A stretch of 44,757 bases of DNA from Gemmatimonadales bacterium (GCA_045803515.1 JBJMOX010000144.1:1-44757), one strand, 5' to 3'. Positions 21,872 to 43,946 are shown, counted from the stretch's first letter. Numbers and translations are program-made. The notes: generated by a model not told the origin, from the letters alone.

Positions 21872-22009
21872 GATCCGCATCCCCAGGCTCAGCGCCACAC
21901 TCTTCCTGACCAGCACCGTCAACCGCTCTCGTCGAGGAATCGGCCTCGCCGCCGGACTGCGGCGTTCGCCTCCGCGGGTGTAATGCCGCGCGGGCCGGGG
22001 AGGTTTCCG

Positions 22010-22035
22010 GGAACCAACCGCCGCGTGCCCGCATT
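22010..22035 (+). promoter_or_regulatory. ECF-sigma promoter (glcG-cupin-lactonase unit)
   Basis: GGAAC-N17-CATT, 50 nt upstream of ATG 22086. Confidence 0.7.
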
Positions 22036-22085
22036 AGAGCGCGTGTCACCCAACCTCGATTTCCCCAGCAGAGGAGAGCTCGCCC

Positions 22086-22580
22086 ATGAGATTCCACGGA
22101 TCCTTCCTGGCCGCCCTGGCGCTGGCGGCTCTGACCGGCCGGGCCCACGCGCAGACCACCATCAGCAAAAGGACGCTCACGCTGGACGGAGCCAAGGCCA
22201 TCGCCGCCGCGGCGGCGGCGGAGGCGAAGAAGGGGAATGAAGGGGCATCGGTGGCCGTGGTGGATGACGGTGGGAATCTGATGTACCTGGAGCGGCTCCA
22301 GCCGACCTTCCCGATGGGTGCCACCATCTCCACCGAGAAGGCGCGCACGGCGGCCCTCTTCCAGAAGCCGACTAAGATCCTGGAGGATGCCATCGTGGGC
22401 GGCCGCACGCCCCTGCTGAACGTCTGGTCCGCTCCACTCAACGGCGGCGAGCCGATCGTGGTCGACGGGCAGGTCGTCGGCGCGGTGGGCGTGAGCGGTG
22501 CCTCGAGCGCCGCCCGGGACGCGGCGATCGCTGTCGCCGGCGCGGCCGCACTCGGCTCCAAGACCAGCGCGACCAGGTAG
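22086..22580 (+). CDS. Secreted GlcG/HbpS-family heme-binding protein
   Basis: Signal peptide; SVAVVDDGGNL, KARTA, GGEPIVVDGQVVGAVGVSG. Confidence 0.9.
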   Translation: MRFHGSFLAALALAALTGRAHAQTTISKRTLTLDGAKAIAAAAAAEAKKGNEGASVAVVDDGGNLMYLERLQPTFPMGATISTEKARTAALFQKPTKILEDAIVGGRTPLLNVWSAPLNGGEPIVVDGQVVGAVGVSGASSAARDAAIAVAGAAALGSKTSATR

Positions 22581-22590
22581 GGAGATCACC

Positions 22591-23064
22591 ATGCGACTCC
22601 TGAGACTCGCCGCGGTCGCCGCGTTCGTGGCGCTGCCGCTCGGCACGGCTCGCGCGCAGTCCGACGACGCGAGCGTCAGGTACTTGAGGCACGATGAGGT
22701 CATTGCGGCCTTCGCCAGAGGCAAGCCGATGATCGAAGTGGGAGACTACAAGATCCACGCGAGCCGGCGGGAGGGTCCCGGTCTGGTCGAGGTGCATACC
22801 CGGGACACCGACCTCGCCTACGTCCTGCAGGGGTCGGCGACCCTGGTGACGGGTGGTACCGCGGTCGGTCTCAAGGAGATCGCCAGAGAAGAGTTCCGCG
22901 GCAGCGCCATCCAGGGCGGTGAGACTCGCCAGCTCAACCCGGGCGACGTCGTCGTCATCCCCAACGGCACGCCCCACTGGTTCAAGGACGTGAAGGCCCC
23001 ATTCCTCTATTACGTGGTCAAGGTGCGGCAGGCCGAGCGCCGGACGACCGCAGGAGCGATGTGA
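22591..23064 (+). CDS. Secreted cupin-domain protein
   Basis: Signal peptide; EVHTRDTDLAYVLQGSATLVTGG and GDVVVIPNGTPHWF cupin motifs. Confidence 0.85.
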   Translation: MRLLRLAAVAAFVALPLGTARAQSDDASVRYLRHDEVIAAFARGKPMIEVGDYKIHASRREGPGLVEVHTRDTDLAYVLQGSATLVTGGTAVGLKEIAREEFRGSAIQGGETRQLNPGDVVVIPNGTPHWFKDVKAPFLYYVVKVRQAERRTTAGAM

Positions 23065-24683
23065 TGCGGCGCCCCCCTCCCATGCTTGTCCGGGCGATGC
23101 TCGCCCTCCTGGCCACACCGGCGCTCGGGACGGCGGTGGCGACGCTGGCGACGGCCCAGGCCACGGTGGATCTCCCCGTCGTTCTTCCGGCCGCGGTGCT
23201 GGATCTCCGCACAGCCGAAGGCGCGGCGCTGGTCCAGGCGCAATGGCGCTATAGCGATGTCAAGGTGATCGACGTAGACCGCACCAACGACATCAGCCCC
23301 CACGCGGAGGCGGTGGGCTTCGACGACTCCGCCTGGGAGCCGATCGAGCCGGCGGCCCTCGAGGTCCGCCGGTCGAAGGGGAGGCTCGCCTTCAACTGGT
23401 ACCGAACGACGATCACCCTGCCCCGGAGGCTCGGCGGCTTCGACGTCGCCGGCGCCACGGTCGTCTTCGAGCTGGTCATCGACGACTACGCCGAGATCTG
23501 GGTGGACGGGAAGCTTCCGCTGGTGCTGGGTCAGACCGGCGGCCAGCTGATCAAGGGATTCAACGCGCCCAACCGCGTGTTGCTCACCCGCGATGCCCGA
23601 CCCGGCCAACAGATCCAGCTCGCCGTCTTCGGCATCAACGGGCCAATCTCCAGCCCCCCGGTGAACTTCATCTGGGTGCGCTCGGCGACGCTCGATTTCT
23701 ACCGCCCGGGCCAGGTGGGCACGTCCGCGGCCTCGCCGGCCAAGGTGGTCCGGCTGGACGCCTCGCTCGACCGCATCGTGCCCCGCGGCGCGACCATCGA
23801 GAAGCTGGCGGGCGGATTCCAGTTCATCGAGGGACCGGTTTGGCACCCCGACGGTTACCTGCTCTTCAGCGACCCCAACGCCAACACGATCTATCGCTGG
23901 ACGCCGGATGGCGCCGTCTCGGTGTTCCGCAGCAAGAGCGGCTATACCGGTGTCGATATCGGCGAGTACCACCAGCCCGGCTCCAACGGGCTCACCTTGG
24001 ACCGGAACGGCCTGCTCACGATCAACGAGCACGGCAACAGGCGGGTGACCCGTTTGGAGCGGACTGGACAAATTTCGGTGCTCGCGGACCGCTACGAGGG
24101 CAAGCGGCTCAACAGTCCCAACGACCTGGTGTACCGCTCCGACGGCACGCTCTATTTCACCGATCCACCGTTCGGCCTGCCCAAGGGGTTCGACGATCCG
24201 ACGAAGGAGCTGCCGTTCAGCGGGGTCTACATGGTGAAGGACAGCCAGGTGACGCTGCTGACCCGGGAGCTGAGCGGACCGAACGGTATCGCCTTCTCGC
24301 CGGACGAGCGCTACCTCTACGTCGACAACTGGGACCTCGAGCACAAAGTGCTGATGCGCTACGAGGTGAACCCGGACGGGACGATCGCCAACGGGAAAGT
24401 GTTCTACGATTTCACCAGGGACCCGGAGCCGGTGGCGCTGGACGGCATCAAGGTGGACCGAGAAGGCAACGTCTATGTGTCGGCGCCCGGCGGTTTGTGG
24501 ATTCTCTCGCCGGCCGGCAAAGCCCTGGGGCGAATCGTGCCGCCGGAGCACGACGCCAACTTCACCTTCGGGGACGCGGACGGAAAGTCGCTTTACCTGA
24601 CGGCGAGCACTGGACTGTATCGGGTCCGGGTCAACCTGCCGGGGATTCGTCCCGGCGCCGTGCAGCAGGCGGCGGCGCGATGA
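23061..24683 (+). CDS. Secreted SMP-30/gluconolactonase with N-terminal jelly-roll (sugar-binding-like) domain
   Basis: WYRTTI...DDYAEIWVDG N-domain; EGPVW, GSNGL, LNSPND, PNGIAFSPDE, DGIKVD propeller motifs. Confidence 0.9.
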   Translation: MMRRPPPMLVRAMLALLATPALGTAVATLATAQATVDLPVVLPAAVLDLRTAEGAALVQAQWRYSDVKVIDVDRTNDISPHAEAVGFDDSAWEPIEPAALEVRRSKGRLAFNWYRTTITLPRRLGGFDVAGATVVFELVIDDYAEIWVDGKLPLVLGQTGGQLIKGFNAPNRVLLTRDARPGQQIQLAVFGINGPISSPPVNFIWVRSATLDFYRPGQVGTSAASPAKVVRLDASLDRIVPRGATIEKLAGGFQFIEGPVWHPDGYLLFSDPNANTIYRWTPDGAVSVFRSKSGYTGVDIGEYHQPGSNGLTLDRNGLLTINEHGNRRVTRLERTGQISVLADRYEGKRLNSPNDLVYRSDGTLYFTDPPFGLPKGFDDPTKELPFSGVYMVKDSQVTLLTRELSGPNGIAFSPDERYLYVDNWDLEHKVLMRYEVNPDGTIANGKVFYDFTRDPEPVALDGIKVDREGNVYVSAPGGLWILSPAGKALGRIVPPEHDANFTFGDADGKSLYLTASTGLYRVRVNLPGIRPGAVQQAAAR

Positions 24684-24700
24684 GGTACGGTCGTCCCGAG

Positions 24701-25657
24701 CTAGGCCGGAATTGGAATCTGATCCTTGTGCCGCGCCAGCCACTGCTCGAATGACTGCAGCTCCGGATTCAGGCTCCGGGTGAATTCGAGGTCGCGCACG
24801 CCGCGGAAGTAGTCGTTGAAGTCGCGCTTGAACTGGAACATGTTGCCCATGTCGTCGGCGCCGGGGAAGCCGAAGCTTCGGTACACCTCGGGGGGCACGT
24901 TGGTGTAGCCGATGTCCGTGCCCAACGCGCGACTTAGCGCTGCGGCCATCTCGGCCCCGGAGAGGTGCTCGCCGGCGATCGCCACCGTCTTCCCGATGAA
25001 CTCCTTGCCCTTCTTGAAAATGGCATAGGCCGCCTTGCCGATGTCCTCTGCGGCGATGCCTGGGAGCTTCTTGTCATCGAGCGGGTAGACCAGGGCGAGC
25101 CGGCCGTCCGGCCCGCGCTGCGGCCCCGCGCCGAAATAGATCAGGTTGTCCCAATAGAACGAGGTGAGCAGAAAGGTCGTCGGCACCCTCTCCCGGCGGA
25201 ACAGCTCGTCGGCCTCTCCCTTCGCGTCGAAGTGCGGGACTTTGTACTTGCCCTGGAGCGTGGGTAAGCGGTCGTCGCTCAACGGCACCCATTTCCTGGT
25301 GTCCTCCAGGGTGGACCAGATCACGTGCTGCAGGCCCGCGGCCTTGGCCGCCCGCGCGATGTTCCCCGCCTGGGCGAACTCCTTTTCCGGGGAGAAGTGC
25401 TCCCAGAAGTTGGTGACGCCGAACGCGCCATATGCCTCGGCGAATGCCCGCTCGAGGCTCTGCTGGTCGTCGAGGTCCGCCGGCACAACCTCGGCTCCGG
25501 CGGCGGAGAGCGCCTTGCCCTTGTCGGAGTCCGGATGCCGCGTCAGTGCCCGGGCCCGGAACGGTCCGTTTCGGTCAGCCAGGATGGCCCGCACCAGGCC
25601 GCCGCCTTGCGCGCCGGTGGCGCCCACGACCGCGATCACTTTCTTCTGCTCTGCCAT
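24701..25657 (-). CDS. NmrA/HSCARG-family NAD(P)-binding protein
   Basis: VVGATGAQGG, TNFWE, VPHFDAKG. Confidence 0.93.
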   Translation of the reverse strand: MAEQKKVIAVVGATGAQGGGLVRAILADRNGPFRARALTRHPDSDKGKALSAAGAEVVPADLDDQQSLERAFAEAYGAFGVTNFWEHFSPEKEFAQAGNIARAAKAAGLQHVIWSTLEDTRKWVPLSDDRLPTLQGKYKVPHFDAKGEADELFRRERVPTTFLLTSFYWDNLIYFGAGPQRGPDGRLALVYPLDDKKLPGIAAEDIGKAAYAIFKKGKEFIGKTVAIAGEHLSGAEMAAALSRALGTDIGYTNVPPEVYRSFGFPGADDMGNMFQFKRDFNDYFRGVRDLEFTRSLNPELQSFEQWLARHKDQIPIPA

Positions 25658-25689
25658 GACGAATCTCCTGCCAAGGGAAAAAACAGCGC

Positions 25690-26142
25690 CTATGGTACCA
25701 GCGCATCGCACAGTCGGGCGAGCTGTCGGAGCTTGGGCTCGGTCAGCGCGGCGGTGATGGCCTTCTGCACCACCAGCACCTCGGGATCGATCCGGTCCAG
25801 CAGCGCGAGCCCCGCCTTGGTGATGGTGGCGACCGATTCCCGGCGATCATCCGCGTTCCGGAGCCGGGCGACCAGTCCCCGCCGCGCCAGCCGGTCGAGC
25901 ATGCGGGTGACGTCCGGGGCCCGATGGATCATCCGCCGAGCCACCTCGTTCCGCGGATGGCCACCCGGATACACGCCCCGAAGGATGCGGAGCACATTGT
26001 ACTGGTCGGCCGTGATGCCGTGACGCTCCCAGACCGGGGCGACGGCCTGATCGACATGATCGGCCGCGACCATCAGGCTCACCACCGCTTCGTCGGCGAT
26101 GCTGTGGAAGCGTCGCTGCTGGAGCCGCTCGCGGATCGACAT
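25690..26142 (-). CDS. MarR-family transcriptional regulator
   Basis: QYNVLRILRG, PDVTRMLDRL, DRRESVATITKAG. Confidence 0.92.
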   Translation of the reverse strand: MSIRERLQQRRFHSIADEAVVSLMVAADHVDQAVAPVWERHGITADQYNVLRILRGVYPGGHPRNEVARRMIHRAPDVTRMLDRLARRGLVARLRNADDRRESVATITKAGLALLDRIDPEVLVVQKAITAALTEPKLRQLARLCDALVP

Positions 26143-26149
26143 GGCGCCG

Positions 26150-26177
26150 AATATGTGTTGCGAACACGGATTGTCAA
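26150..26177 (-). promoter_or_regulatory. Sigma70 promoter of marR-nmrA with operator-like palindrome; probably leaderless
   Basis: TTGACA-N16-CATATT ending 7 nt before the ATG; palindrome GTGTT-N3-AACAC (26155-26167) across the spacer. Confidence 0.7.
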
Positions 26178-26342: not shown

Positions 26343-27875
26343 TCAGTGGCCTGCCGTGCGCTCCATACTCAGCTCCGTCTCGAGACTCTCCCGGTCCCGG
26401 AAGATCGTGGCGAGCGCCAGCACCCGTCCGCCATGTACGAAGCGGACGGCGCAGTCCCGTCCCTCGATGTCGCCATCGACCTCAACCGTGTCCCACCGCT
26501 CCGCGTGGCCGACATAGTTGATGCTCACGTCGTAGTGCTGGCTCCAGAAGAAAGGGACCGCGTCGAACCGCTCGCGGAGACCGAGGATGTTGCGGGCGGC
26601 CGTCCGGCCCTGTCGCTGTGCCACCACCCAGTGCTCCACCCGGATCCGGTCGCCGGTCTGCGGGTCGGGCCACCGCGCGATGTCCCCGGCGGCGAAGACG
26701 CCGGGTGCGCTGGTCTCGAGGAACTCGTTCACCGCCACACCGCGATCGAGCGTGAGCCCCGCCGCCTCGGCCAGCTCGACGTTGGGCTTGACGCCGATCC
26801 CGGCAACCACGAAATCGGCGGCGAGTCGTTCACCGTTCTCCAGGACGACGCCGCCCTCGGAGATCTCCCGCGCCTTGTGGCCGAGGTGGAATCGGACGCC
26901 GTGCTCCTCGTGGAGCCTGCGGACGAAGTCGCCGAGCTGGGGACCGATCACGCGCTCCAGCGGCCGGGACTCCGGCGCCACGACCTGGACCTCCAACTCC
27001 CGGCTCCGAAGCGAGGCCGCGACCTCGAGTCCGATGAAGCTGGCTCCGAAGACGATCGCGCGTCGCCCTGGCTTGGCGGCGCCGATGATGGTACGGCTGT
27101 CCGCGAGGCTTCGCAGATAGTAGACCGGCAACCCTCCCCGATCCACGCCCGCAGGGAGCCCGATCGGCGTGGCCCCGGTGGCGAGCAGCAGGGCGCCGTA
27201 AGGGAGCGTGCGCCCGTCGTCGAGCAGGACCTGCCGAGCTCCCGGCCGGAGCTCGTTCACCCGCTGCCCACGCAGGCGCTCGACCCGGCAGTCCCGGTCG
27301 AACTCGGGCGCTCGCAGGGGCATCCATTCTTCCTGGGCGTTGCCCGCGAGGTAGTCCTTGGAGCAGTTCGGTCGGTCGTAGGGTGCGTCGGGGTCGGAGT
27401 CGACCACGGTAATCGTCCCCTCGTAGCCCTCCGCTCGGAGCGCCGCGACGGCGCTGTCCCCCGCTGCCCCACCGCCCACGATCACGACGCCGTCCACATC
27501 GCGACCCGACCGCGCGGCACGCGGCACCGGGGCCACTGCTCTGCCGGTGACGTAGACTCGCCCGCCCCGCTCCTCCGCCGTCCATCGGCTCAGGGGATGC
27601 AGCGCCGGCGGGCGAACCGGATGACCGGTGCGCAAGCTGAAGCAGGCGTGGTGCCAGGGGCAGCGCACGGTATCGCCCACCATCAAGCCCTCGGCCAGCG
27701 GGCCACCATAATGGGTGCAGGTCGCCCCGAGGGCGAACCACTCCGAGCCGCGCCGGGCGAGCAGCACCGCCTCCCCATCGACGTGACCCGCGAGCATACC
27801 GCCATCCAGCACCTCACTGGTCGGAATCCCCTGTTTCAGGTCCGGGCCGGCCGGAGCCTGCTGATCTGCGGACAT
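26343..27875 (-). CDS. Rieske [2Fe-2S]-FAD/NAD oxidoreductase fusion (AIFM3-like)
   Basis: CTHYG...CPWHH Rieske motif; GGGAAG, YDRP, ATG, GASFIGLE, AAGD, RVEHW, VPFFWS. Confidence 0.92.
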   Translation of the reverse strand: MSADQQAPAGPDLKQGIPTSEVLDGGMLAGHVDGEAVLLARRGSEWFALGATCTHYGGPLAEGLMVGDTVRCPWHHACFSLRTGHPVRPPALHPLSRWTAEERGGRVYVTGRAVAPVPRAARSGRDVDGVVIVGGGAAGDSAVAALRAEGYEGTITVVDSDPDAPYDRPNCSKDYLAGNAQEEWMPLRAPEFDRDCRVERLRGQRVNELRPGARQVLLDDGRTLPYGALLLATGATPIGLPAGVDRGGLPVYYLRSLADSRTIIGAAKPGRRAIVFGASFIGLEVAASLRSRELEVQVVAPESRPLERVIGPQLGDFVRRLHEEHGVRFHLGHKAREISEGGVVLENGERLAADFVVAGIGVKPNVELAEAAGLTLDRGVAVNEFLETSAPGVFAAGDIARWPDPQTGDRIRVEHWVVAQRQGRTAARNILGLRERFDAVPFFWSQHYDVSINYVGHAERWDTVEVDGDIEGRDCAVRFVHGGRVLALATIFRDRESLETELSMERTAGH

Positions 27876-27950
27876 GTCTTGGCTCCTCCCTGTCGCGGGA
27901 TTCAATGGTTCAGGAAGTGTAACGTCGCAGTGGGGATCGTGGCTCGGCCG

Positions 27951-27976
27951 GGAACCTGGGGACCCGATTCGGCATT
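27951..27976 (+). promoter_or_regulatory. ECF-sigma promoter (FMN reductase to ECF-ZAS operon)
   Basis: GGAAC-N17-CATT, 43 nt upstream of ATG 28020. Confidence 0.7.
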
Positions 27977-28019: not shown

Positions 28020-28586
28020 ATGGCAGACCCCCGTCCGCTCGGCATCCCGGTGATTCTCGGCACAGCCCGAAAGGGCAGGATGAGTGCCCACGCGGCGCGG
28101 TTCGTCCTCGGGGAGCTGCAGAAGCGGGACGGGGTGGTGACCGAGCTGATCGACGTGGCCGAGCTCTCGCACCGGCTCGACGACAATGGGCAGGACACCG
28201 CCGATCCGGCGTTCTCGGCCTGCATGAACCGGGCGGATGCCATCGTGCTGGTCGCCCCGGAATACAACCATGCGATGCCCGGCCTGCTGAAGCATGTGCT
28301 CGACAGCTGCCTCAAGGAGTACATCCACAAGGCGGCGGGCATCGTGGCGGTCTCGGCCGGGCCGTTCGGCGGCACCCGGGTGATCGAGACCTCGCTGCCG
28401 GTGCTCCGCGAGCTGGGCCTGGTGACCATCTTCTGGGACGTGAACGTCGGCAGTGTCTCCAAGGTCTTCGACGAGAGCGGCACGCTGCTCGATCCGGCGT
28501 TCGTCCGGCGCACGGAGAAGTTCCTGGGCGAGCTGATCTGGATGGCCAGGACTCTGCGCTACGGCCGCGAGTCGATTGCCCTGTAG
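28020..28586 (+). CDS. NADPH-dependent FMN reductase
   Basis: ILGTARKGRMS, APEYNHAMPGLLK, SAGPFGG. Confidence 0.92.
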   Translation: MADPRPLGIPVILGTARKGRMSAHAARFVLGELQKRDGVVTELIDVAELSHRLDDNGQDTADPAFSACMNRADAIVLVAPEYNHAMPGLLKHVLDSCLKEYIHKAAGIVAVSAGPFGGTRVIETSLPVLRELGLVTIFWDVNVGSVSKVFDESGTLLDPAFVRRTEKFLGELIWMARTLRYGRESIAL

Positions 28587-28601: not shown

Positions 28602-28790
28602 ATGCGCCACATGTCCCAACGTCCGATGATCTGTCCCAAGTGCGGCGCCACCATGAACCAGCACGGCGAGAAGCTGGTGTACACCGGGGAGACGCGTGGG
28701 CCGGGCGTGGATCCGGTACTGGGTGGCGTCATGGAGGAGATGCACGCCTGCCCCCGGTGCGGGTACGTGGACTCCCGGCGGGCCGGCTGA
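28602..28790 (+). CDS. Small zinc-ribbon protein (CxxC...CxxC)
   Basis: CPKCG...NQHGEK...HACPRCG; in operon, stop overlaps the next ATG; start may be 28611. Confidence 0.65.
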   Translation: MRHMSQRPMICPKCGATMNQHGEKLVYTGETRGPGVDPVLGGVMEEMHACPRCGYVDSRRAG

Positions 28791-29143
28791 TGCGAAACGC
28801 CTGGGCCGCGCTCCTGCTGCTGGCGCTGCTGGCTGGCGGCACCCCCGCGGTCGTCCAAGGGCCCTCCATCAGCTTCCGCGCGGCTCGATGGGAGCCGCCA
28901 CCGTTCGCGGTTCGATTCACTCCCCGGGCCGGGGAACCTCGCCGCGATTACCGCTGGGCAGGAGCGGCCGTGGTCGGTACCGGCCTGGGGATCACGGGGG
29001 CGATCGTGGCGAGGGCGGCCTGCGGGAACTCGGAGAATGGCCCGCGGGATTGCACCGGCGTAACCATCGGCGTGGGCTTGCTGGGCGCCGCGGTGGGCGG
29101 CGCCATCGGGAATCTCATTGGACGAGCTCTTCCAAGACACTAA
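28790..29143 (+). CDS. Hypothetical signal-peptide/glycine-rich membrane protein
   Basis: TGATG coupling; MRNAWAALLLLALL signal; two Gly-rich hydrophobic helices flanking a Cys pair. Confidence 0.6.
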   Translation: MRNAWAALLLLALLAGGTPAVVQGPSISFRAARWEPPPFAVRFTPRAGEPRRDYRWAGAAVVGTGLGITGAIVARAACGNSENGPRDCTGVTIGVGLLGAAVGGAIGNLIGRALPRH

Positions 29144-29162
29144 ATTGGGCCACTCCCAACCG

Positions 29163-29810
29163 ATGAGTGCCGTGCTCGAGGATTCTCAGGCCAGCGCCCC
29201 CTGGTCAGCACCGGAGCCGAAGGCAGCCCGCCCTTCCGCGGAGTTCGAGCCGCTCTTCGGGGCCGTCGCCGGCACGGCGTTCGGCATCGCGGTGCGTCTC
29301 ACGCGCAACCAAGCGGATGCCGAGGACCTGGTCCAGGAGGCGGCCTTGCTCGCCTTCCGGGCGTTTGGCTCCTTCGAGCCGGGCACCAACTTCCGCGCCT
29401 GGTTCTTCAAGATCCTGACCAACTGCTACTTCTCGAAGCGCCGGCGGGAGAAGAGCCGGCCGGTCACATCCGACCTCGACGACACGCCCGATCTCTACCT
29501 CTACGCCCGTTCCGCCGAAGCAGGGTTTCCCACCCAGGGCCCGGACCCGGCGGCGCAGCTCCTTGACCAGCTGGGAACCGAGCGGGTGCTCGCCGCGATC
29601 GATCGGCTCCCCGAAGAGTACCGAGTAGTCTCGACGCTCTACTTTATGGAAGATCTGAGTTACGAGGAGATCGCCCAGGTGCTCGGCTGTCCGATCGGGA
29701 CCGTGCGGTCCCGGCTCCATCGGGGACGGAAGATGCTCCAGAAGGCCTTGTGGCAGGTCGCCGAAGAGAGCGGAATCATCAGTCATCATCCAACCGGCGC
29801 CGGCGCATGA
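29163..29810 (+). CDS. ECF sigma factor, SigR/SigH-like
   Basis: DAEDLVQE, FEPGTNFRAWFFKILTN, LPEEYR...SYEEIAQVLGCPIGTVRSRLHRGR. Confidence 0.93.
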   Translation: MSAVLEDSQASAPWSAPEPKAARPSAEFEPLFGAVAGTAFGIAVRLTRNQADAEDLVQEAALLAFRAFGSFEPGTNFRAWFFKILTNCYFSKRRREKSRPVTSDLDDTPDLYLYARSAEAGFPTQGPDPAAQLLDQLGTERVLAAIDRLPEEYRVVSTLYFMEDLSYEEIAQVLGCPIGTVRSRLHRGRKMLQKALWQVAEESGIISHHPTGAGA

Positions 29811-30070
29811 GCCATCCGCTGAATCGAACCACCTGCGAAGCGGCGTTCCGCCGGCTGGACGACTTCCTCGACCGGCGGCTGAGCGAGACCGAGATGCGCC
29901 TGATCCAGCAGCACCTCGAGATCTGCGCCGCCTGCGCCCACGAATTCACCTTCGAGACCAGCGTGTTGTCGGGAGTTCGACGGAAGCTGCGGCAGCTGAG
30001 CGTGCCGCCGGGCCTGCTGGCGCGCATCGCCGCGCAAATCCGGGCGGCGGGGGAGGTCGACCCGGACTAG
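29807..30070 (+). CDS. ZAS (zf-HC2) anti-sigma factor, RsrA/RshA-like
   Basis: ATGA-coupled to the sigma gene; TCEAAF...HLEICAAC (C...HxxxCxxC). Confidence 0.9.
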   Translation: MSHPLNRTTCEAAFRRLDDFLDRRLSETEMRLIQQHLEICAACAHEFTFETSVLSGVRRKLRQLSVPPGLLARIAAQIRAAGEVDPD

Positions 30071-30324: not shown

Positions 30325-31440
30325 ATGCGGCGACTCGGCTGCACCTTCTCCTCGGACGCGTGTCCGACACGCAGCGGAGGGCTGCGCCGGCTGGCTCCCG
30401 CACTCTCCGCTCTCCTGGTAGTCGCACTGGGCTGCGGAGAGGACGCGAAGTCACCGACCGCCCCGGAGCCCGGGCCGGCGCTCGCCACCACGGCGACCAC
30501 TGCGCTGGCGTTCTACCAGGTAAGCGGCGGCGGCGTCCATACCTGCGGCGTGACCACCGACAATCGAGCCTACTGCTGGGGCCGGAATCTGGTTGGCCAA
30601 CTCGGCGATGGCACGACGACCGATCGCCTGACGCCGGTCCCGGTCGCCGGCGCGCTCCGCTTCCGCCAAGTGAGCGCGGGCGACGGGTATGCCTGCGGCG
30701 TGACCACGGACGACCGGGCCTACTGCTGGGGCGACAACTCTTTCGGCCAGGTCGGCGATGGCACGATGCTCACCAATCGCTCAACGCCAGTGGCGGTCAA
30801 CGGAGGGCGCCAGTTCCGTCAGGTGAGCGCGGGCGGGGCCCACACCTGCGGCGTGACGACGTCAGACGAGGCTTTTTGCTGGGGGGTGAACGGTTACGGC
30901 CAACTCGGTGACAGCTCGACGGCTTCCCAACGTCTGACGCCTTCCCGGGTGGCTGGCACGCGCCGGTTCCGCCAGGTGGACGCGGGCGAACTCCACACCT
31001 GCGGCGTGACCACCAATGACCGGGCCTTCTGCTGGGGATATGGCCGAAACGGACAGATTGGCGATGGGAAGACCTACCTGCGCTTTTGGCCAAGGGCGGT
31101 GGCCGGCGGGCTCAGCTTCGAGCGCGTGAGCGCGGGCGTGCTCCACACCTGCGGCGAGACCACGTTGAACCGGGCCTACTGCTGGGGTGACAATGGCTTC
31201 GGTCAGCTCGGCAACGGCACGAACACGGGGCCAGAGACATGCCACTACGGTCCCTGCAGCACCAGGCCGGTCGCGGTCGCCGGCGGGCGCTTCTTCAAAC
31301 AAGTGAGCGCGGGCGTCCGGCACACCTGCGGCAGCACCGCCGCCGCCGCCTACTGCTGGGGCGGCAACTCTTTCGGCCAGGTCGGCGATGGCACGACGAC
31401 CGATCGCCTGACGCCGGTCCCGGTCGCGGGGGCGATGTGA
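30325..31440 (+). CDS. RCC1/BLIP-II repeat beta-propeller lipoprotein
   Basis: LVVALGC lipobox; six repeats of QVSAG..HTCGVT....YCWG.N..GQLGDG...TPV.V. Confidence 0.92.
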   Translation: MRRLGCTFSSDACPTRSGGLRRLAPALSALLVVALGCGEDAKSPTAPEPGPALATTATTALAFYQVSGGGVHTCGVTTDNRAYCWGRNLVGQLGDGTTTDRLTPVPVAGALRFRQVSAGDGYACGVTTDDRAYCWGDNSFGQVGDGTMLTNRSTPVAVNGGRQFRQVSAGGAHTCGVTTSDEAFCWGVNGYGQLGDSSTASQRLTPSRVAGTRRFRQVDAGELHTCGVTTNDRAFCWGYGRNGQIGDGKTYLRFWPRAVAGGLSFERVSAGVLHTCGETTLNRAYCWGDNGFGQLGNGTNTGPETCHYGPCSTRPVAVAGGRFFKQVSAGVRHTCGSTAAAAYCWGGNSFGQVGDGTTTDRLTPVPVAGAM

Positions 31441-32416: not shown

Positions 32417-32580
32417 GGGGTCGGCCTGGAGAGAAACCAGCCGGCGTAGTACTCGGCCCAGTCCTGGCTCGGCGCCTTCGCCCGATGCTCGGCGTCCGCG
32501 GTTCTGAGCTGCTCGGCGAGCGCGTCCGGCGCCAGCGCGACGCCGAGCAGCTCCGCGATTCTCCTCTTGGAATCGCTCAT
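32413..32580 (-). CDS. Small hypothetical protein (55 aa)
   Basis: ATGA overlaps at both ends, GAGG upstream; C-terminal DWAEYYAGWF. Confidence 0.5.
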   Translation of the reverse strand: MSDSKRRIAELLGVALAPDALAEQLRTADAEHRAKAPSQDWAEYYAGWFLSRPTP

Positions 32581-35168: not shown

Positions 35169-36781
35169 GCCGGGACACTCGCCGTCTGACCCGCGGCGGC
35201 CTGGCTGCGACGTGTGCTGAGCTGCTCGAGGATCCGGTCTCCCACGCGGAGCGCATTGGCCATGATCGTGAGCGCGGGGTTCACCGCCCCGCTGGACGGG
35301 AAGAAGCTCCCATCGACCACATAGAGGTTGTCCACTTCGTGCGCCCGGCAGTCGGTGTTCAGGGCCGAGGTCCTGGGATCGCGCCCGAAGCGAATGGTGC
35401 CGTTCTGGTGCGCCACGCCCGCCAGCGGAATGCGCTGGCCGAGGAACAGGTTGCGGGCGAAGAGGCCCTGGTGGCAGCCGTCGCCGTGCACCGCGCACTT
35501 GGTCTGCTGCTGCATCAGGTGCTCCAGCTTCTGGATGAGCCGCCGGTGGGCCTCTCCGTTGTTCGGCGTGTAGCTCAGCACGATCTTCCCCTCACGATCG
35601 AGAGTGACCCGGTTGTCGGGATCGGGGAGATCTTCCGAGGTGAGCCAGAAGTCGAGCGAGTGCTTTCCCATCAGCTCCAGGGTCCATCCCGGGGCGATCG
35701 CCGGCGCACCGGCCGAGAGCGTGGCGCCGTCCAGTTTGCCGACGAAGGAGATATGGCCCATGGGGAACTGCCACTCCGGCGAGCCGAAGTAGAAGTCGTT
35801 CACTCCCAGGGTCTTCTGGAACACGGTCGGGTTGGGGCACTTGGACAGTGCCATCAGGACCGAGTTGACGTGCCCCATGTAGTGGCGGCCCACCACGTCC
35901 GAGCCGTTGGCCAGGCCGCGGGGATGCTGATCGCTCATCGAGCGTAGCAGCAGCGCCGCGGAGTTGATGGCCCCGGCGGAGACCACGACCACATCGGCCG
36001 AATAGCTCTCCCGGGTGCCATCCCGCTCGACCAGCACGCGCGTGACCTCTCGGCCCGAGGCGCTGGTCTCCAGCCGCGAGACGTAGGCACCCGTGAGCAG
36101 CGTCGCGTTGGGGTACTGCAGCGCCGGATCCACGCAGACCACCTGCGCGTCCGACTTGGCCTGGACCAGGCAGGGATGGCCGTCGCAGGTGGCGCAGCGG
36201 ATGCAGCGGCTCTGCCGCCGGTTCGACTCGTCGAGCATGATCCCCAGCGGCACCGGGAAAGGACGGAGGCCCAGGCGGGAGAAGTCGTCGCTCAGCTGCT
36301 GAATCCGCGGCTCGTGACTCACCGCAGGGTACGCGTAGGGCGCGCTGGCCGGCGGATCGGTCGGATCGGCCCCGCGTTGACCGTGCACCTGGTAGAGGCG
36401 CTCGGCCTCGGTGTAGTAGGGCTCGAGCTCGTCGTAGCTGATCGGCCACGCCGGCGAGATGCCGCCGTGGTGCTTGAGCTCGCCGAAGTCCTCCCGCCTG
36501 AGCCGGAAGAGCGCGGCGCCGTAGAATTTCGTGTTGCCGCCCACCCAGTAGTTGGTATGCGGATGCAGGTCCTTTCCATCCGTGTCTCGCCAGTGCTCCT
36601 TGGTCTGATATCTCCCGTCGACGTTGACCGCCCGGGTGTTCCAGTTCTCCGGCTCCCGCGGCACGTAGTCGCCACGCTCGAGGAGCAGGATCCGCTTGCC
36701 CGAGGGTGCGAGCCGGTGAAACAGCGTGCCGCCGCCCGCGCCGGAGCCGATGATGATGACGTCGTAGTGAGAGGAAGACAT
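35165..36781 (-). CDS. GMC-family flavoprotein oxidoreductase with Cys cluster
   Basis: IIGSGAGG, VGGNTKFYGA, CIRCATCDGHPC, SAGAINS, HQNGT, VNPALTI. Confidence 0.93.
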   Translation of the reverse strand: MSSSHYDVIIIGSGAGGGTLFHRLAPSGKRILLLERGDYVPREPENWNTRAVNVDGRYQTKEHWRDTDGKDLHPHTNYWVGGNTKFYGAALFRLRREDFGELKHHGGISPAWPISYDELEPYYTEAERLYQVHGQRGADPTDPPASAPYAYPAVSHEPRIQQLSDDFSRLGLRPFPVPLGIMLDESNRRQSRCIRCATCDGHPCLVQAKSDAQVVCVDPALQYPNATLLTGAYVSRLETSASGREVTRVLVERDGTRESYSADVVVVSAGAINSAALLLRSMSDQHPRGLANGSDVVGRHYMGHVNSVLMALSKCPNPTVFQKTLGVNDFYFGSPEWQFPMGHISFVGKLDGATLSAGAPAIAPGWTLELMGKHSLDFWLTSEDLPDPDNRVTLDREGKIVLSYTPNNGEAHRRLIQKLEHLMQQQTKCAVHGDGCHQGLFARNLFLGQRIPLAGVAHQNGTIRFGRDPRTSALNTDCRAHEVDNLYVVDGSFFPSSGAVNPALTIMANALRVGDRILEQLSTRRSQAAAGQTASVPA

Positions 36782-36785: not shown

Positions 36786-37958
36786 CTACCTGCTGCTCAT
36801 TGGGTCGGTGCTCGGCGTGACGGTGAGCCGCAGCACCTCGTTGGTACGGGGGTAGCTGAATCTATCATGGACATGGGCGATGCCCTGGTGCTCCACCATC
36901 CCGGCGTCCGGCGTCTTCTGCCGGGGACCTTGGTTGGGGCCCAGCCCGGGCTCCTCGTTCGCTTCGGTGCCGGCATCCCAGAGCGCGAGCTGCCGCGTCA
37001 TGTCGCCGGTGACCGGCTTGCCAGCCGCGTCGAACAAGGCGATCGGCCGGTCGTTGGAGTAGAACAGATCGTTCGATTGGCCGAACATCCAGGCCAGCGA
37101 GAGGGCCTGGCCCGGCGCGGCGTTCACTTCGAACGAGTAGCCCTTTCCCGGGGGGATGGGCCCGCCGGCGTCGGAGCCGACCGGTCGGTCGTCGGCACCC
37201 ACCGCCGCCACGCCGGCAGCCCCGGTGAGGGACTTGGCCAGGGGCGCCGGGTTCCCGGTCTCGGCCAGCGTCTCCAATCCCTTTCCGGCGTCGACCCGGC
37301 CGGCGACGAAGATCGGGTTCGCGGTCCCGGTATGCACCGCCCACAGCACGGGAGCGGAGACGAACGGAGCAGTCTTGCCGTTGGACAGCTTGAGCACTTC
37401 ACCCTGCGAGATGTTCTCGACTGTGATCGTGAACGTGGTGGTGGCCGGCGCACTTTGCCCACTCGTGAGTGGCGCCGTGGCGAAGTTGACGCTGAAGCGG
37501 TGACACCAGATCGTGACGGCGCGGTACTTGGTGAGGTCGGCGCCGGCGGGGATCTCGTAGTTCTGGTCGCCCTGGTTGCCCTTGAGCCTTCCGAGCTCGA
37601 TATAGCCGGCCTTGGTAACGGTCGCGTTGTCCGAGGCGTCCTGAGCCGCCACCAGGTAGACCCGGACATCCGGGCCGTTGGACGTCGCGAAGTCAGTCAA
37701 TCGCAACACCCGACGGCCACCGCCGAGATCGTGCACCGACGCGTTGCCCTTGGTCTCGTGGGCCACCGAGTGGAACTGCCCGGCCAGGATGCTCGCCGGC
37801 GCCGTGGCGCCCTCGCTCGATGATCCCGCCGTGGAAGCACTGGCGGTGACGAGCCCTTCATTGACCTTCTTGTTCACCAACAGCAGCTCCGGGCGGAACA
37901 GGTACCATCCTACCCCACCCAGCACGACCAGACCCAGAATCCAGGTGCGCCGTTTCAT
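36786..37958 (-). CDS. Membrane-anchored DM13 domain / Spondin_N domain fusion
   Basis: N-terminal TM helix; DM13 (GQFHSVAHETKG...NGPDVRVYL...LKGNQGDQNY...IWCHRFSVNFA), then Spondin_N (FTITVENIS...GLETLAETG...MFGQSNDLF...WDAGTE). Confidence 0.85.
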   Translation of the reverse strand: MKRRTWILGLVVLGGVGWYLFRPELLLVNKKVNEGLVTASASTAGSSSEGATAPASILAGQFHSVAHETKGNASVHDLGGGRRVLRLTDFATSNGPDVRVYLVAAQDASDNATVTKAGYIELGRLKGNQGDQNYEIPAGADLTKYRAVTIWCHRFSVNFATAPLTSGQSAPATTTFTITVENISQGEVLKLSNGKTAPFVSAPVLWAVHTGTANPIFVAGRVDAGKGLETLAETGNPAPLAKSLTGAAGVAAVGADDRPVGSDAGGPIPPGKGYSFEVNAAPGQALSLAWMFGQSNDLFYSNDRPIALFDAAGKPVTGDMTRQLALWDAGTEANEEPGLGPNQGPRQKTPDAGMVEHQGIAHVHDRFSYPRTNEVLRLTVTPSTDPMSSR

Positions 37959-38011: not shown

Positions 38012-38851
38012 CTATAATGTCGACGGGTGCAGGTTGGTTCCCTCCGGGAGCAGCGCGGTGGCGCGGCTGGCCTGGTACTCGCAGAAGATGCAGCGCTTCG
38101 AGTTCCGGTGATGCAGCTTGGCGCAGGCGATCGCCTGCCGGCCCCTGCGTGCGAGGTAGAGTTGGGCCGCGGCGAGCATGCCCAAGGGCGGTGCCGTGAA
38201 GTAGATCCAGATCGCGGTCCAGTTGCCGCCGAAGAACGCGGATCCAAAGGTGCGCGCGGGGTTCATGCTCATCCCCGACAGTGGCGCCTCGAACGTGATG
38301 TAACTGGCTACCAGGACGCCCGCACAGAGCCCGGTGTACGCCGCCCACCGGGGATGGTTGGACACCGACAGCACGACCAGCACCAGCAGGCAGGAGATCC
38401 CGGCCTCGGCGACGAAAGCGACGGCCACTCCGCTCGAGCCGGGGAGGGTGGCGGCATATCCGACCCGCGGGTCGGCCAGGAGGCTGCCCAGCGCCAGGCG
38501 CGCGATCAGTACGCCCCCGACTCCCCCGGTGAACTGGGCGAGCATGTAGGCTGCGGCGTCCCGCGGCGCGACCTTACCCAATCGGGTGAAGGTGAGCGTG
38601 ATGGCCGGATTCATGTGCGCGCCGGATTGCTTGCCCCACGGTGAGTAGATCAGCAGGATCGCGGTCGCTCCCATGGCGAGCCCTATCAGCAGTCGGCGGC
38701 TGAACGGGTCGGGAATGGCGCCGTGCACCGGCGATGCGGGATGCTCCAGCAGCACGGTGAACCCGCAGGCCGAGATCATGAACAGCCCAAGCAGCGCCCC
38801 CTCCATCAGGTATTCCGCTAGATGATGCTCAGCGAGCGACGGACTGCGCAC
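38012..38851 (-). CDS. Aquaporin (MIP family) with Cys/His-rich C-terminal tail
   Basis: SGAHMNPA and SMNPART NPA motifs, six hydrophobic helices; tail CAKLHH...RCIFC; start uncertain. Confidence 0.92.
   Translation of the reverse strand: MRSPSLAEHHLAEYLMEGALLGLFMISACGFTVLLEHPASPVHGAIPDPFSRRLLIGLAMGATAILLIYSPWGKQSGAHMNPAITLTFTRLGKVAPRDAAAYMLAQFTGGVGGVLIARLALGSLLADPRVGYAATLPGSSGVAVAFVAEAGISCLLVLVVLSVSNHPRWAAYTGLCAGVLVASYITFEAPLSGMSMNPARTFGSAFFGGNWTAIWIYFTAPPLGMLAAAQLYLARRGRQAIACAKLHHRNSKRCIFCEYQASRATALLPEGTNLHPSTL
38016..38041 (-). promoter_or_regulatory. Internal ECF-sigma promoter upstream of DM13/spondin-GMC-VOC-GlcDH
   Basis: Minus strand GGAAC-N17-CATT within the last codons of the aquaporin gene. 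Confidence 0.65.
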
Positions 38852-40810
38852 GACGCGGTCTTTCCGGCTGGGGAAGCTCCGGCCCGCCGAGGACCAGGCG
38901 ATCCAGCCTGAGCGCCTCGCCCACCGACCACGCCTGGAACGGGCAGCCCCGCGGCGTGTGAGGCGGCTCCGCGTCGGCGATCTCCGAAATGTGGCCCACG
39001 CCCGCCTCCGACAGGTGATCGAGCAGCGGTTGGAAGAACCGCCGCCGTGCCTCGGCCCGCACATCGCTACCGCCTCCACGCACCCGCACCCAGGCCTCCA
39101 CGAACGGACCGAGCAACCAGGGCCAGACGGTGCCCTGGTGGTACCCGCCGTCGCGCTCCCGAATGCCACCCTCGTATCGCGGCGTGTAACCCTCCGCACC
39201 GGGTGCCAGCGTCCGGAGACCGAGCGGGGTCCAGAGCTGACGCTCGACCGCGTCGACGATCTGGCGGGCCCGCTCGCCTTCCACCAGGGCGTGCGGCAAT
39301 CCGCCGATCGCGAGGATCTGGTTGGGCCGCATGGTGGCGTCCAGGCGGCCGGGCACATGGTCGGCATCGATCACGTCATTGAGCCAACCAGCCGCCGGGT
39401 TCCAGAAGCGCCGGCCGAAGCTCTCCACACCCCTGGCGTAGAGCGCCCGGTATTCCGCCGTGAAGCGCTCGGCGATGCTCAGCGCATTGAGCCACAATGC
39501 CTGGATCTCGACCGGTTTGCCGATCCGCGGCGTCACCACCCAGTCGCCGACCTTCGCGTCCATCCAGGTGAGCTGCGCGCCGGGCACGCCGGCGGCGAGC
39601 AGGCCATCCTCCGCGGCCTTGATGCCGTAGCGGGTGCCGTGCACGTGTCCGGCCAGGATCGCCTGTATCGCCAGACCCAACGTCTTCCGGTCGCGCGCGC
39701 GGGCCGGCCGGCCCGCGGCCTCGGCGGCCTCGAGATACTCGTGGGCGGCGACGATATACCAGAGCGAGGCGTCGACCGTGTTGTACTCGGGGGCATCGCC
39801 CTGGTCGACGAAGCGGTTGGGGAGCATGCCTTCGGACACGAGGCCGGCCCACTCGAGCAGAATCGAGCGGGCGTCCGCCAGGCGTCCGGTCGCGAGGCAG
39901 AGTCCTCGCAGCGCAATGAAGGTGTCGCGCCCCCAGTCGGTGAACCAGGGATAGCCCGCGACGATGGTCTTGCCCGGGTCGCGCCGCACCAGGTACGCGT
40001 CACCGGCGCGCTCCAGGCGGGTGGCGAACCGGGCACGCCGGGCGCGCTCCGAGCGGCGGAAGCGGCTGAACCCGTCCGCGGCGCCGAGGTCGTCCGGGAG
40101 CGCGCCGTCGGTCCCCAGGAGGAGAACGGCATCGGTCTTGGAGAGGTCCCAGTGGAAGACGCCCGGGGCCGCCAGGTCCTCGGCGTCGTCCAGGCCCCGC
40201 GCCCGCTCCTCCGAGTAGAGGAAGCCACGATACCATTGCGGCTCCGCATGGTAGCTGCCGTTGGAGAGGGCGCGCACCGCCGGCACGCCATCATAGGGAT
40301 GCCACTCCACCCGCTGAGGCGACGTCACCTCCATGAAGCGGAATGCCGGATTCTCGTGATGCAGGGCATGCGAGTCGCGCCCGGAGAGGAAGGGGCGCAC
40401 CGCGAAGGACAGCTCGGTGGCGCGCGGGCCGATCAGCCGCCAGCGGAGCGCCACGACAGCCCGCCCTTGCGGCACGAACAGCTCGTGCTCGATCCGGGTG
40501 CCGTCGCCGAGGCGATAGGTCCAGGTCGGCCACGGCTCGTCGGCGAACGACTCGAGCGTGGCTCCGTGCTCCGGCGCGAGCACTCCCGGGACGTAGCGCT
40601 GGCGGGTGAGAAATTCCGGCCCGGCGCCGGACTCGGTCCAGGCGTCCAGCCCGTTCACCAGGACCATGCGGCCGGTCGGCGGAGTCGTGGCCGTCAGCAG
40701 CAAGGCGTGGTAGCGTCGGGTGCGCACGCCGAGCGTGGTGCCGGAGGCGAAACCGCCCTGGCCATCGGCCTCCAGCCATTCGGTGCGGTCGTCCACCGCG
40801 ATCGGCCCGC

Positions 40811-40814
<4 letters not shown>
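38829..40814 (-). CDS. Amylo-alpha-1,6-glucosidase / glycogen debranching enzyme (archaeal-type)
   Basis: [70 protein letters not shown]. Confidence 0.92.
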
Positions 40815-43531
<2,717 letters not shown>

Positions 43532-43605
43532 GAGATGCCTCCCGACGCGAGGCTACGGCTCGCGTCCTCCATCGGTTGATGTTGTGGGTGGTGACTTCCG
43601 GTTAG

Positions 43606-43631
43606 AACGCCATGTGAACGGGATGGGTTCC
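43606..43631 (-). promoter_or_regulatory. ECF-sigma promoter of the GH63 operon, with -35 inside a dyad
   Basis: Minus strand GGAAC-N17-CGTT; the -35 sits in CGGGATGG-AAC-CCATCCCG. Confidence 0.72.
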
Positions 43632-43651
43632 ATCCCGGCCGCGCCGCGGAC

Positions 43652-43864
43652 TTACCCCGCCGTCTCCGCGTCGAGCCGCAGCTTGATCCTGGTCATGAGG
43701 TCACCCGGCGGGGCGATCCGTCGAAGGCGGGCACGAATGTCGTGGATCAGCCTGATCTCGAACCGGTACCGGCTGGCGCAGTCGCTGCACTCCTCGAGAT
43801 GCCGCTCGACCAACTGCAGGTCGTCCGCCGAAAGCTCGCGGTCGAGGTAATCATCGAGCCGCTG
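43652..43864 (-). pseudogene. Second ZAS anti-sigma paralogue with degenerate N-terminus
   Basis: QRLDDYLDRELS...HLEECSDC...RLRRIAPPGDL aligns by eye with the 29807 protein but lacks the first Cys and a nearby start; nearest in-frame ATG is 43999. Confidence 0.6.
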
Positions 43865-43920
43865 AAGGAGCCCTTGAGCCCTGCGGGTGACCTGCTTGGA
43901 ATATGCTCGACTGGCGGAAA

Positions 43921-43946
43921 AACGTGGCGTCGTGGGGAATGGTTCC
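43921..43946 (-). promoter_or_regulatory. ECF-sigma promoter upstream of the second ZAS gene
   Basis: Minus strand GGAAC-N17-CGTT. Confidence 0.65.

Follow-up and report, generated by a model that had tools for sequence, protein, structure and literature searches.

A patchily distributed Gemmatimonadales gene cluster as a probable ECF sigma factor regulon with glucose-releasing and glucose-oxidising targets

The right half of a 44,757-nt contig from an uncultured Gemmatimonadales soil bacterium (GCA_045803515.1, JBJMOX010000144.1:1-44757; this whole stretch is called the window below) encodes an extracytoplasmic function (ECF) sigma factor and a zinc-associated anti-sigma (ZAS) protein among genes for glycoside hydrolases, sugar dehydrogenases and exported proteins. 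The question raised by this locus is whether the sigma factor controls its neighbors, so that the cluster at 21977-43946 is a regulon carrying its own regulator, and, if so, what the regulon may respond to and produce. A preliminary description had proposed a physically clustered, autoregulated stress regulon with promoters of the form GGAACC-N16-C[AG]TT. The sequence and its comparison with relatives reveal a conserved promoter architecture, a motif in autoregulatory position, and the confinement of high-scoring sites to the cluster. We consider it likely that the local sigma factor reads the promoters of the cluster, and this accessory cluster probably represents a complete ECF sigma regulon with the mechanism and output proposed below.

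The promoter motif in the window and in the genome

The pattern GGAACC-N16-CRTT, searched on both strands, has five matches in the window, all at the positions and on the strands given in the preliminary description. In 100 dinucleotide-preserving shuffles of the window the mean was 0.07 and the maximum 2, and none of the 100 reached five. The window is contig C99 of assembly G000 (4,313,864 bases in 438 contigs, 80% complete). The strict pattern occurs eight times in this assembly, with five of the eight matches inside the cluster; a Poisson estimate for at least five of eight falling within the 21,970-base span is 9e-10. GGAAC combined with spacers of 15, 16, 18 and 19 has 18, 45, 23 and 41 genomic matches, none of them on the cluster contig; the spacing between GGAACC and CRTT is thus fixed.

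The enrichment relative to the rest of the genome that had been proposed as a check was borne out by a weight matrix of 32 columns, built from 49 motif sites of related loci. The whole-assembly scan covered G000 only, other genomes being scanned as loci. Six sites score above 18 bits; these six best genomic matches all fall in 21977-43946, and the runner-up reaches 16.7 bits. The reversed genome, used as a control, has no match above 18 bits. Between 12 and 18 bits there are 12 matches in the real and 11 in the reversed genome; because these counts are alike, we treat the weaker matches outside the cluster as background. The six sites are:

22010-22035, plus strand: promoter of the HbpS-like/cupin/lactonase operon; strict motif, 29.7 bits
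27951-27976, plus strand: promoter of the sigma operon (autoregulation); strict motif, 24.6 bits
38016-38041, minus strand: promoter of the DM13/GMC/VOC/GDH operon, within the last codons of the MIP gene; strict motif, 28.4 bits
43606-43631, minus strand: promoter of the GH63/GDE/MIP operon, -10 GGCGTT; strict motif, 21.4 bits
43921-43946, minus strand: promoter preceding ZAS2, -10 CACGTT; strict motif, 21.1 bits
21977-22008, minus strand: sixth, orphan promoter-like site, GGAAACC...GGCATTACACC; 24.4 bits by matrix

Four operons are headed by motif sites; the fifth site leads to a truncated ZAS2 gene, and the sixth is an orphan. The distance from the end of the motif to the start codon is 50 nt for the HbpS-like gene, 57 nt for DM13-spondin, 74 nt for GH63, and 43 nt for the FMN reductase gene, with which the site at 27951 heads the operon ending in the ECF sigma and ZAS genes, as had been claimed. 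The earlier statement that each site lies correctly oriented upstream of a coding region thus applies to the four operons; the site at 38041 is itself inside the end of the MIP gene, and the site at 43946 precedes a ZAS2 gene that has no start.

The consensus of the 49 related sites is (G/T)GGAACC(T/A)TTCC-N-GCATTAnA, with a spacing of GGAACC-N15-GCATT-N2-A. Columns outside the search pattern are informative as well: G precedes CATT in 92% of the sites, A stands three bases after it in 80%, a T-rich stretch follows GGAACC, and A never precedes GGAACC. At the -10 position where SigR/SigH promoters have G, 94% of the 49 sites have A; two of the five window sites have CGTT.

Lists of open reading frames (ORFs) are ambiguous at the 68% G+C of the window; genes were called by combining third-position GC with family searches. 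The genes of the four operons, together with ZAS2, are:

22086-22580, plus strand: exported HbpS-like (GlcG/DUF336) protein with signal peptide; Pfam PF03928, 1.1e-27
22591-23064, plus strand: exported cupin protein with signal peptide; Pfam cupin families
23061-24683, plus strand: exported gluconolactonase-type protein; Pfam SGL, 2.7e-39
28020-28586, plus strand: NADPH-dependent FMN reductase family protein; Pfam FMN_red, 7.5e-25
28602-28790, plus strand: 62-aa zinc-ribbon-like protein with two CxxC pairs; sub-threshold family matches only
28790-29143, plus strand: small hydrophobic protein; no family match in profile searches
29118-29810, plus strand: ECF sigma factor; Pfam, NCBIfam and PDB comparison
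29807-30070, plus strand: ZAS1, soluble anti-sigma of 87 aa; NCBIfam and PDB comparison
32873-34066, minus strand: archaeal-type zinc glucose 1-dehydrogenase (GDH); Pfam Glu_dehyd_C, 3.5e-51
34053-35168, minus strand: exported two-domain VOC (glyoxalase/dioxygenase superfamily) protein; family searches, signal peptide
35165-36781, minus strand: GMC-family FAD dehydrogenase; family searches and PDB comparison
36786-37958, minus strand: membrane-anchored protein with DM13 and spondin domains; family searches
38012-38851, minus strand: MIP-family channel (aquaporin or glycerol facilitator type); family searches
38829-40814, minus strand: GDE_N/GDE_C amylo-alpha-1,6-glucosidase-like protein; Pfam, 2.1e-105 and 2e-55
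40811-43531, minus strand: GH63-like glycoside hydrolase of 906 aa (MGH1-like domain); Pfam PF22422, 1.3e-25, and PF03200, 2.9e-09
43652-43900, minus strand: ZAS2, second RsrA-like paralogue, 5'-truncated; Pfam zf-HC2, 35.6 bits (cut-off 22.2)

Operons were assigned from gene overlaps and gaps of a few bases, and within each operon the genes overlap or sit a few bases apart; the probable start of GDE at 40814 directly follows the GH63 stop. A gap of 457 bases separates the GDH gene from the pentapeptide gene. The window scan for intrinsic terminators found two, below the shuffle mean of 7.1, and is uninformative for delimiting operons.

Conservation and rearrangement of the cluster among relatives

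The comparison set comprised 41 genomes, including 24 congeners and 16 genomes from two further families of that order; these relatives are kin and not independent samples. One of the 41, G003, is flagged as unpublished, and none of the conclusions depends on it alone. Sigma orthologues with 75-82% identity are present in seven of the 24 congeners (G009, G010, G012, G013, G018, G019 and G020), and up to 60 kb around each was compared. The seven share the same gene set in varying module order, and the motif precedes the orthologous first gene of every module. The order in G020, for instance, runs from pentapeptide through ZAS, sigma, lactonase and cupin to HbpS, followed by GH63 through glucose dehydrogenase. 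The DM13 gene occurs in eight of the 24 congeners, namely the seven sigma carriers and G001, and in none of the 16 genomes of the two other families. The sigma of G001 is 51% identical, and both the sigma and the DM13 gene of this genome have the motif upstream. Sigma and targets are thus jointly present or absent among the congeners, as the preliminary description would lead one to expect for a gene set that co-occurs; together with the genome-wide enrichment and the motif before orthologous first genes, this joint presence upholds the proposal of a physically clustered, autoregulated regulon.

In 79 further public loci we searched for GGAA[CT][CT]-N16-C[AG]TT between 200 nt upstream and 30 nt downstream of the extrapolated gene start, excluding homologues below 50% identity, matches not near the N-terminus, and genes with less than 200 nt of upstream sequence. 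The motif was found upstream of:

HbpS: 11 of 12 loci
FMN reductase: 11 of 11 loci
DM13: 10 of 15 loci by the strict pattern, GGAAACC variants being added by the matrix
sigma: 15 of 50 loci
GH63: 1 of 4 loci
ZAS2: 1 of 8 loci
cupin: 0 of 13 loci
lactonase: 0 of 12 loci
Zn-ribbon: 0 of 11 loci
ZAS1: 0 of 42 loci
glucose dehydrogenase: 0 of 10 loci
VOC: 0 of 13 loci
GMC: 0 of 9 loci
MIP: 0 of 10 loci
GDE: 0 of 4 loci

The matrix gives 68 matches of at least 18 bits in these loci (1.2 Mb), 57 of which lie no more than 450 nt upstream, on the same strand, of cluster homologues (sigma 16, DM13 14, HbpS 11, FMN reductase 11, GH63 3, a small membrane protein 1 and a lactonase fragment 1); the matrix was trained on the same loci, so that these scores are not independent, which counts against their use as support for the regulon, and the result lies in the positions relative to genes. 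Orthologous sites of the GH63/GDE/MIP promoter are found in G009, G018, G020, L043 and L045, and the Zn-ribbon gene is conserved after the FMN reductase gene. Loci whose sigma falls below about 50% identity, mostly from Acidimicrobiia, have no matrix match of 18 bits or more. Distant orthologue loci have the motif before NDH-2-like, rhodanese and DUF417 genes, which likewise stand for redox functions. The fetched flanks contain at least one target homologue in 21 of the 23 loci whose sigma is at least 70% identical, in five of 26 at 50-69%, and in one of 30 below 50%; of the two exceptions in the first class, one is a 5.6-kb contig and the other is locus L046.

The orphan site at 21977-22008 abuts the HbpS promoter back to back, and no ORF was found downstream of it before the 3' end of a convergent M55 peptidase gene. 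The GGAAACC variant recurs at orthologous positions, upstream of DM13 (G009) and of GH63 (G020); the gene behind the homologous back-to-back partner is GH63 in G020 and L045, and in G009 and L042 it encodes a secreted cupin-ABM protein. The orphan is probably a promoter left by rearrangement; it could also give rise to an antisense transcript toward the M55 peptidase gene. In congener locus L016 (G009:C370) the two back-to-back sites are separated by an inserted mercury-resistance operon (merR, merT, a gene for an HMA-domain protein, merA and two merB), at about 1700-12900.

The distribution of the cluster is patchy, with the sigma in seven and DM13 in eight of the 24 congeners, as would be expected of a genomic island; other marks of an island are missing, since GC stays between 0.66 and 0.70 across the whole window without deviant composition, no tRNA was found in the window, and no integrase or transposase families were found among the ORFs scanned. 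In G024, a clusterless congener with a 99% complete genome, the motif occurs on C18 (144824-145081) and is followed 29 nt later by a 68-residue match with 60% identity to sigma residues 12-79. This fragment looks like the remnant of a lost cluster.

Not everything inside the span belongs to the motif-headed operons. The content claimed for the cluster stands for the four operons, and five genes lie inside the span without the motif:

24701-25711, minus strand: NmrA-like protein; family searches, no motif
25690-26142, minus strand: MarR/HpaR-like regulator; family searches, no ECF motif
26343-27905, minus strand: Rieske-ferredoxin/reductase fusion; family searches, no motif
30325-31440, plus strand: RCC1-repeat lipoprotein; family searches, no motif
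31580-32416, minus strand: pentapeptide-repeat protein, the real start being Met134 of a long ORF; no motif upstream

The G020 cluster has none of the first four. Just upstream of the MarR/HpaR-like gene, at 26150-26177 (minus strand), is a sigma-70-like promoter, TTGACA-16-CATATT, whose presence fits a MarR-NmrA unit controlled independently of the ECF sigma. The RCC1 lipoprotein gene stands between ZAS1 and the pentapeptide gene only in the cluster of this genome. The trio of sigma, ZAS and convergent pentapeptide gene extends to other Gemmatimonadota and to a metagenome-assembled genome from Eisenbacteria, and in more than 30 related loci ZAS and pentapeptide genes are arranged tail to tail, about 25-100 bases apart. 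We considered the pentapeptide gene as a target and rejected it, its best matrix score being below zero in 30 of 30 related loci and in the window. A 53-aa ORF without family match (32425-32583, minus strand) shares an ATGA overlap with the pentapeptide start.

The left 21 kb of the window, which encodes chemotaxis/flagellar-type regulators and an oligopeptide ABC system, is unrelated to the cluster. CheA, CheW, CheR, a MinD/FlhG-like ATPase, a sigma-54 activator, CheY-like and CheZ-like proteins and then a PhzF-family protein are encoded at 5057-20234; a FliA-like sigma (14105-14884) lies inside this chemotaxis/flagellar regulatory cluster.

The regulators, the proposed mechanism and its rivals

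The sigma factor has only regions 2 and 4 (Pfam Sigma70_r2, 5.7e-13; Sigma70_r4_2, 1.5e-18) and lacks region 3, and it scores 101.4 bits on the sigma70-ECF model TIGR02937 (cut-off 42.9), as expected for an ECF (group 4) sigma. Its closest solved chain is Mycobacterium tuberculosis SigH (8.5e-33). The ZAS1 gene overlaps the sigma stop, and its product of 87 aa has no hydrophobic segment, in agreement with a soluble anti-sigma at the +1 position; the closest solved relative is the RsrA structure 5frf (2.3e-4). Cys10, His36, Cys40 and Cys43 of ZAS1 align with the RsrA ligands and are invariant in all 59 aligned orthologues (67 rows were extracted, eight of which were empty). The description of the sigma as SigR/SigH-type therefore stands with respect to its relatives SigH and RsrA and to autoregulation; its promoters depart from that type in having GCATT instead of GTT at -10.

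ZAS2 is intact in G009, G012 and L043, where a GTG start and Thr/Ser-Cys-Glu/Asp are followed by HX3CX2C, and where a site with CGTT at -10 stands before every copy of the gene. Compared with L043, the window lacks about 38 bases here, so that the gene is without its ribosome-binding site, start codon and first Cys. The truncation may reflect real decay to a pseudogene or an assembly error. In L038 (G018:C24) the ZAS and pentapeptide genes are duplicated, and one ZAS gene directly follows the Zn-ribbon gene with no sigma between.

The preliminary view of the targets as sugar-releasing, sugar-oxidizing and exported redox proteins agrees with the family assignments, and no thioredoxin or Msr gene carries the motif. 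The lactonase protein begins with about 250 aa without family match, followed by an SMP-30/gluconolactonase beta-propeller whose closest solved structures are the putative gluconolactonase 3e5z (9.3e-42) and the exported gluconolactonase 3dr2 (8.4e-32). The glucose dehydrogenase is closest to the GDHs of Haloferax (2b5v, 5.7e-56) and Sulfolobus (2cd9, 5.7e-43), and the GMC protein to catalytic subunits of fructose dehydrogenase/FAD-glucose dehydrogenase (7w2j, 2e-35; 6a2u_B, 5.5e-34). The GDE protein scores 331 bits on TIGR01561 (cut-off 364). Signal peptides are predicted for the HbpS-like, cupin, lactonase and VOC proteins, and an N-terminal anchor for DM13-spondin. The latter is a single ORF of 390 aa in the window, and all 13 related loci listed have a separate DM13 ORF (157-171 aa) followed by a spondin ORF; the single ORF stems either from fusion of the two genes or from a frameshift artefact. 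The idea that DM13-spondin is a "hitch-hiker" carrier for the signal-less GMC protein in twin-arginine translocation (Tat) was dropped, as the twin arginine is not conserved in orthologues.

Three soil metatranscriptome runs each contain 6% of the sampled words, and their contigs match, with 0-2 differences, parts of the sigma gene (29284-29488, 29292-29486 and 29612-29829) as well as the MarR and RCC1 genes; since such contigs reveal neither start sites nor strand nor level, and may stem from carried-over DNA, we draw no conclusion on expression from them.

We propose the following mechanism. At rest, the sigma factor would be held by the Cys-His-Cys-Cys zinc site of ZAS1 until a thiol-reactive oxidant or electrophile oxidizes that site. 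The freed sigma would then amplify its own operon and switch on the three other operons. In genomes with an intact ZAS2, this second anti-sigma would be induced and provide negative feedback. The GH63 and GDE proteins would release glucose from a stored alpha-glucoside or glucan, and its oxidation by the NAD(P)-dependent glucose dehydrogenase and the GMC flavoenzyme would supply reductant to the FMN reductase and related systems. The exported HbpS-like, cupin, gluconolactonase, VOC and DM13-spondin proteins may act in the envelope, and the MIP channel may move water or a small polyol. A thiol oxidant or electrophile as the inducing signal is plausible, at slightly less than an even chance in our estimation; the reductant-supply role is a tentative assignment that we would rather lean against than for. 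One could go further and picture a portable, self-sufficient module, in which sigma, sensor and whole regulon are gained and lost as a unit among Gemmatimonadales and rearranged at promoters, with a redox signal turning stored glucoside into reducing power by the direct glucose dehydrogenase route and calling up exported redox proteins, and with ZAS2 as the off switch; this more general picture we regard as doubtful.

Several observations weigh against the proposed regulon and its mechanism. The best NCBIfam model for the sigma, SigH_actino TIGR02947, an actinobacterial equivalog model and not an ECF-group model, gives 153.8 bits, below its cut-off of 251.55, and ZAS1 scores 46.7 bits on antisig_RsrA, below the cut-off of 62.5. 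The -10 element GCATT differs from the SigR/SigH consensus GTT. Among the targets, the GMC dehydrogenase has no signal peptide, though its neighbors are exported, and the GH63 protein has no NCBIfam match and only a marginal PDB match, so that it is supported by Pfam alone. In L046 the sigma, ZAS and pentapeptide genes are present, but the 10 kb of flank on each side contain no target homologue. The term "self-contained" used in the preliminary description fits the lack of any comparable site elsewhere in the assembly, and it holds only for this assembly, since sites may be missing from 438 contigs that are 80% complete. Finally, the transcription starts, the recognition of the promoters by the sigma, the binding of zinc and the nature of the inducing signal are predictions from sequence.

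The alternative that fares best is that the regulon exists as described but with a redox-insensitive ZAS, and that it serves a general, osmotic or desiccation-rewetting response, with breakdown of a glucoside or compatible solute, a channel for water or polyols, and sugar oxidation. GGAAC/CATT is the consensus listed for ECF15 general-stress sigmas (PMC7826278, as excerpted), the relatives of GH63 include compatible-solute glycoside hydrolases (the Pfam family is named after the mannosylglycerate hydrolase MGH1), the MIP channel belongs to the GH63 operon, and the lack of the motif before thioredoxin or Msr genes also agrees with such a role. Jung et al. (PMC3177212, as excerpted) proposed E39, E40, L45 and E46 of RsrA, in the motif HFEECSPCLEK, as redox determinants, in a rule derived from actinomycetes only; by our own alignment ZAS1 (HLEICAACAHE) keeps one of the four, which speaks for this alternative and against the redox mechanism, and ZAS2 (HLEECSDCASR) keeps two. 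With one and two of four determinants retained, sequence cannot settle redox sensitivity. However, none of the four RsrA-type ligands, the N-terminal Cys included, varies among the aligned orthologues, a flavin reductase is the first gene of the sigma operon, and the targets of distant orthologues are rhodanese, NDH-2-like and DUF417 genes. The NepR family (Pfam PF18557) has no match in the 80%-complete genome, in a search whose positive control was found in Caulobacter; PhyR was not searched. We consider a redox-insensitive general-stress response unlikely.

It is also conceivable that the motif is read by another ECF sigma encoded elsewhere, in which case the local sigma operon would be one target among others. 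Sigma-like matches in the genome number at least 17, GGAAC-type -35 elements are common to many ECF groups, and GAGAACC-N15-GCGTT precedes a TlpA-like gene in congeners without the local sigma. This site is one of the weaker matrix matches, of 13.9-16.7 bits, which lie before genes for a TlpA-like redoxin, cytochrome b561, MsrA and a DinB-domain protein (in G000, C351:7829-7860 on the minus, C170:863-894 and C302:1784-1815 on the plus, and C104:563-594 on the minus strand). These sites follow a motif of their own, approximately [CG]AGAACC-N15-GNCGTT, 23-117 nt before the genes, the TlpA-like protein and MsrA being secreted. In five of the ten sigma-less rows (G024, G014, G004, G017 and G006) [CG]AGAACC-N15-G[GAT]CGTT is best-scoring before the TlpA-like gene, whose motif is kept in congeners whether or not they possess the cluster. 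We rejected these sites as a classical thiol regulon of the local sigma, as their motif is different and matches in this score range are equally frequent in the reversed genome; since the TlpA-like site is kept without this sigma, and given the reversed-genome frequency, we assign them to another sigma or to chance. The AGAACC/CGTT sites may represent a second, resident thiol-redox ECF regulon. As for the cluster motif itself, its high-scoring sites are found in the genomes, and on the contigs, that also carry the sigma orthologue, the motif is kept before the sigma's own operon from this genus to Longimicrobium orthologues of 53-55% identity, and none of nine paralogous ECF genes of this genome has GGAAC-N15-19-[CG][GA]T[TCA] within 400 nt upstream. 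Control by a sigma from elsewhere is thus very improbable.

That the locus is a catabolic island serving chiefly to degrade a plant or fungal glycoside or an aromatic compound, with the ECF/ZAS pair as a substrate-responsive switch, would suit its hydrolases, GMC dehydrogenase, VOC and cupin proteins, the secreted cupin-ABM protein of relatives, and the MarR/HpaR-like regulator, NmrA-like protein and Rieske-reductase fusion, but we think there is hardly any chance of it, as these three aromatic-type passengers are motif-free and absent from the G020 cluster, the cluster has no glycoside transporter and no downstream pathway genes, and we know of no cytoplasmic ZAS protein that acts as a substrate sensor.

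Relation to known sigma/anti-sigma systems

Returning to the regulon under the local sigma, its partner and its promoters point to different groups of the ECF classification (PMC7826278, as excerpted). ECF12 is described there with a soluble zinc-finger anti-sigma at +1 and GGAAT/GTT promoters, and Gemmatimonadetes do not appear in the ECF12 taxon list of that text; ECF15 is given promoters with GGAAC at -35, CATT or CGTT at -10, and a spacing of 16-17 nt; and ECF12, 26, 15, 206 and 207 are said to cross-score as close groups. Judged by the +1 ZAS and by GGAACC/GCATT, the cluster combines an ECF12-type partner with an ECF15-listed promoter. In our literature search no work on an ECF sigma or a stress regulon of Gemmatimonadota came up, nor any on this gene set. 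It is well supported that the cluster is of a known regulatory type (ECF/ZAS), in a phylum for which we found no studied example, with an unusual output.

An RsrA-type sensor would here be paired with a general-stress-type promoter, and the output would be glucose release and direct glucose oxidation, not thioredoxins. With one sigma, one or two anti-sigmas, six defined promoters and about 15 target genes, the cluster offers a compact test system that could be moved to a heterologous host. If confirmed, the regulon would widen the known range of ZAS-controlled regulons and provide a marker set for stress responses of these abundant soil bacteria in metatranscriptomes.

Among known systems, SigE-ChrR of Cereibacter sphaeroides (ECF11) resembles the cluster in its soluble zinc anti-sigma, and ChrR answers to an oxidative signal; ChrR, however, has a C-terminal cupin domain and the promoter is GTGATC/CGTA (PMC7826278, as excerpted), whereas the ZAS proteins of the cluster have no extra domain and the motif is unrelated. 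EcfG/NepR/PhyR of Alphaproteobacteria (ECF15) shares the promoter consensus of GGAAC with CATT or CGTT (same source and extent), but the anti-sigma of the cluster is a ZAS and not NepR, and the phylum is different. SigR-RsrA of Streptomyces coelicolor and SigH-RshA of M. tuberculosis (ECF12) have in common with the cluster a small soluble zinc anti-sigma at +1 with an N-terminal Cys and HX3CX2C, an autoregulated sigma, and a -35 element beginning with GGAA. Unlike these systems, the cluster has GCATT in place of GTT at -10 and scores below the curated family cut-offs; its putative targets are not thioredoxin, Msr or thiol-cofactor genes and all lie beside the sigma; and some Gemmatimonadales genomes possess a second, apparently sigma-dependent ZAS paralogue.

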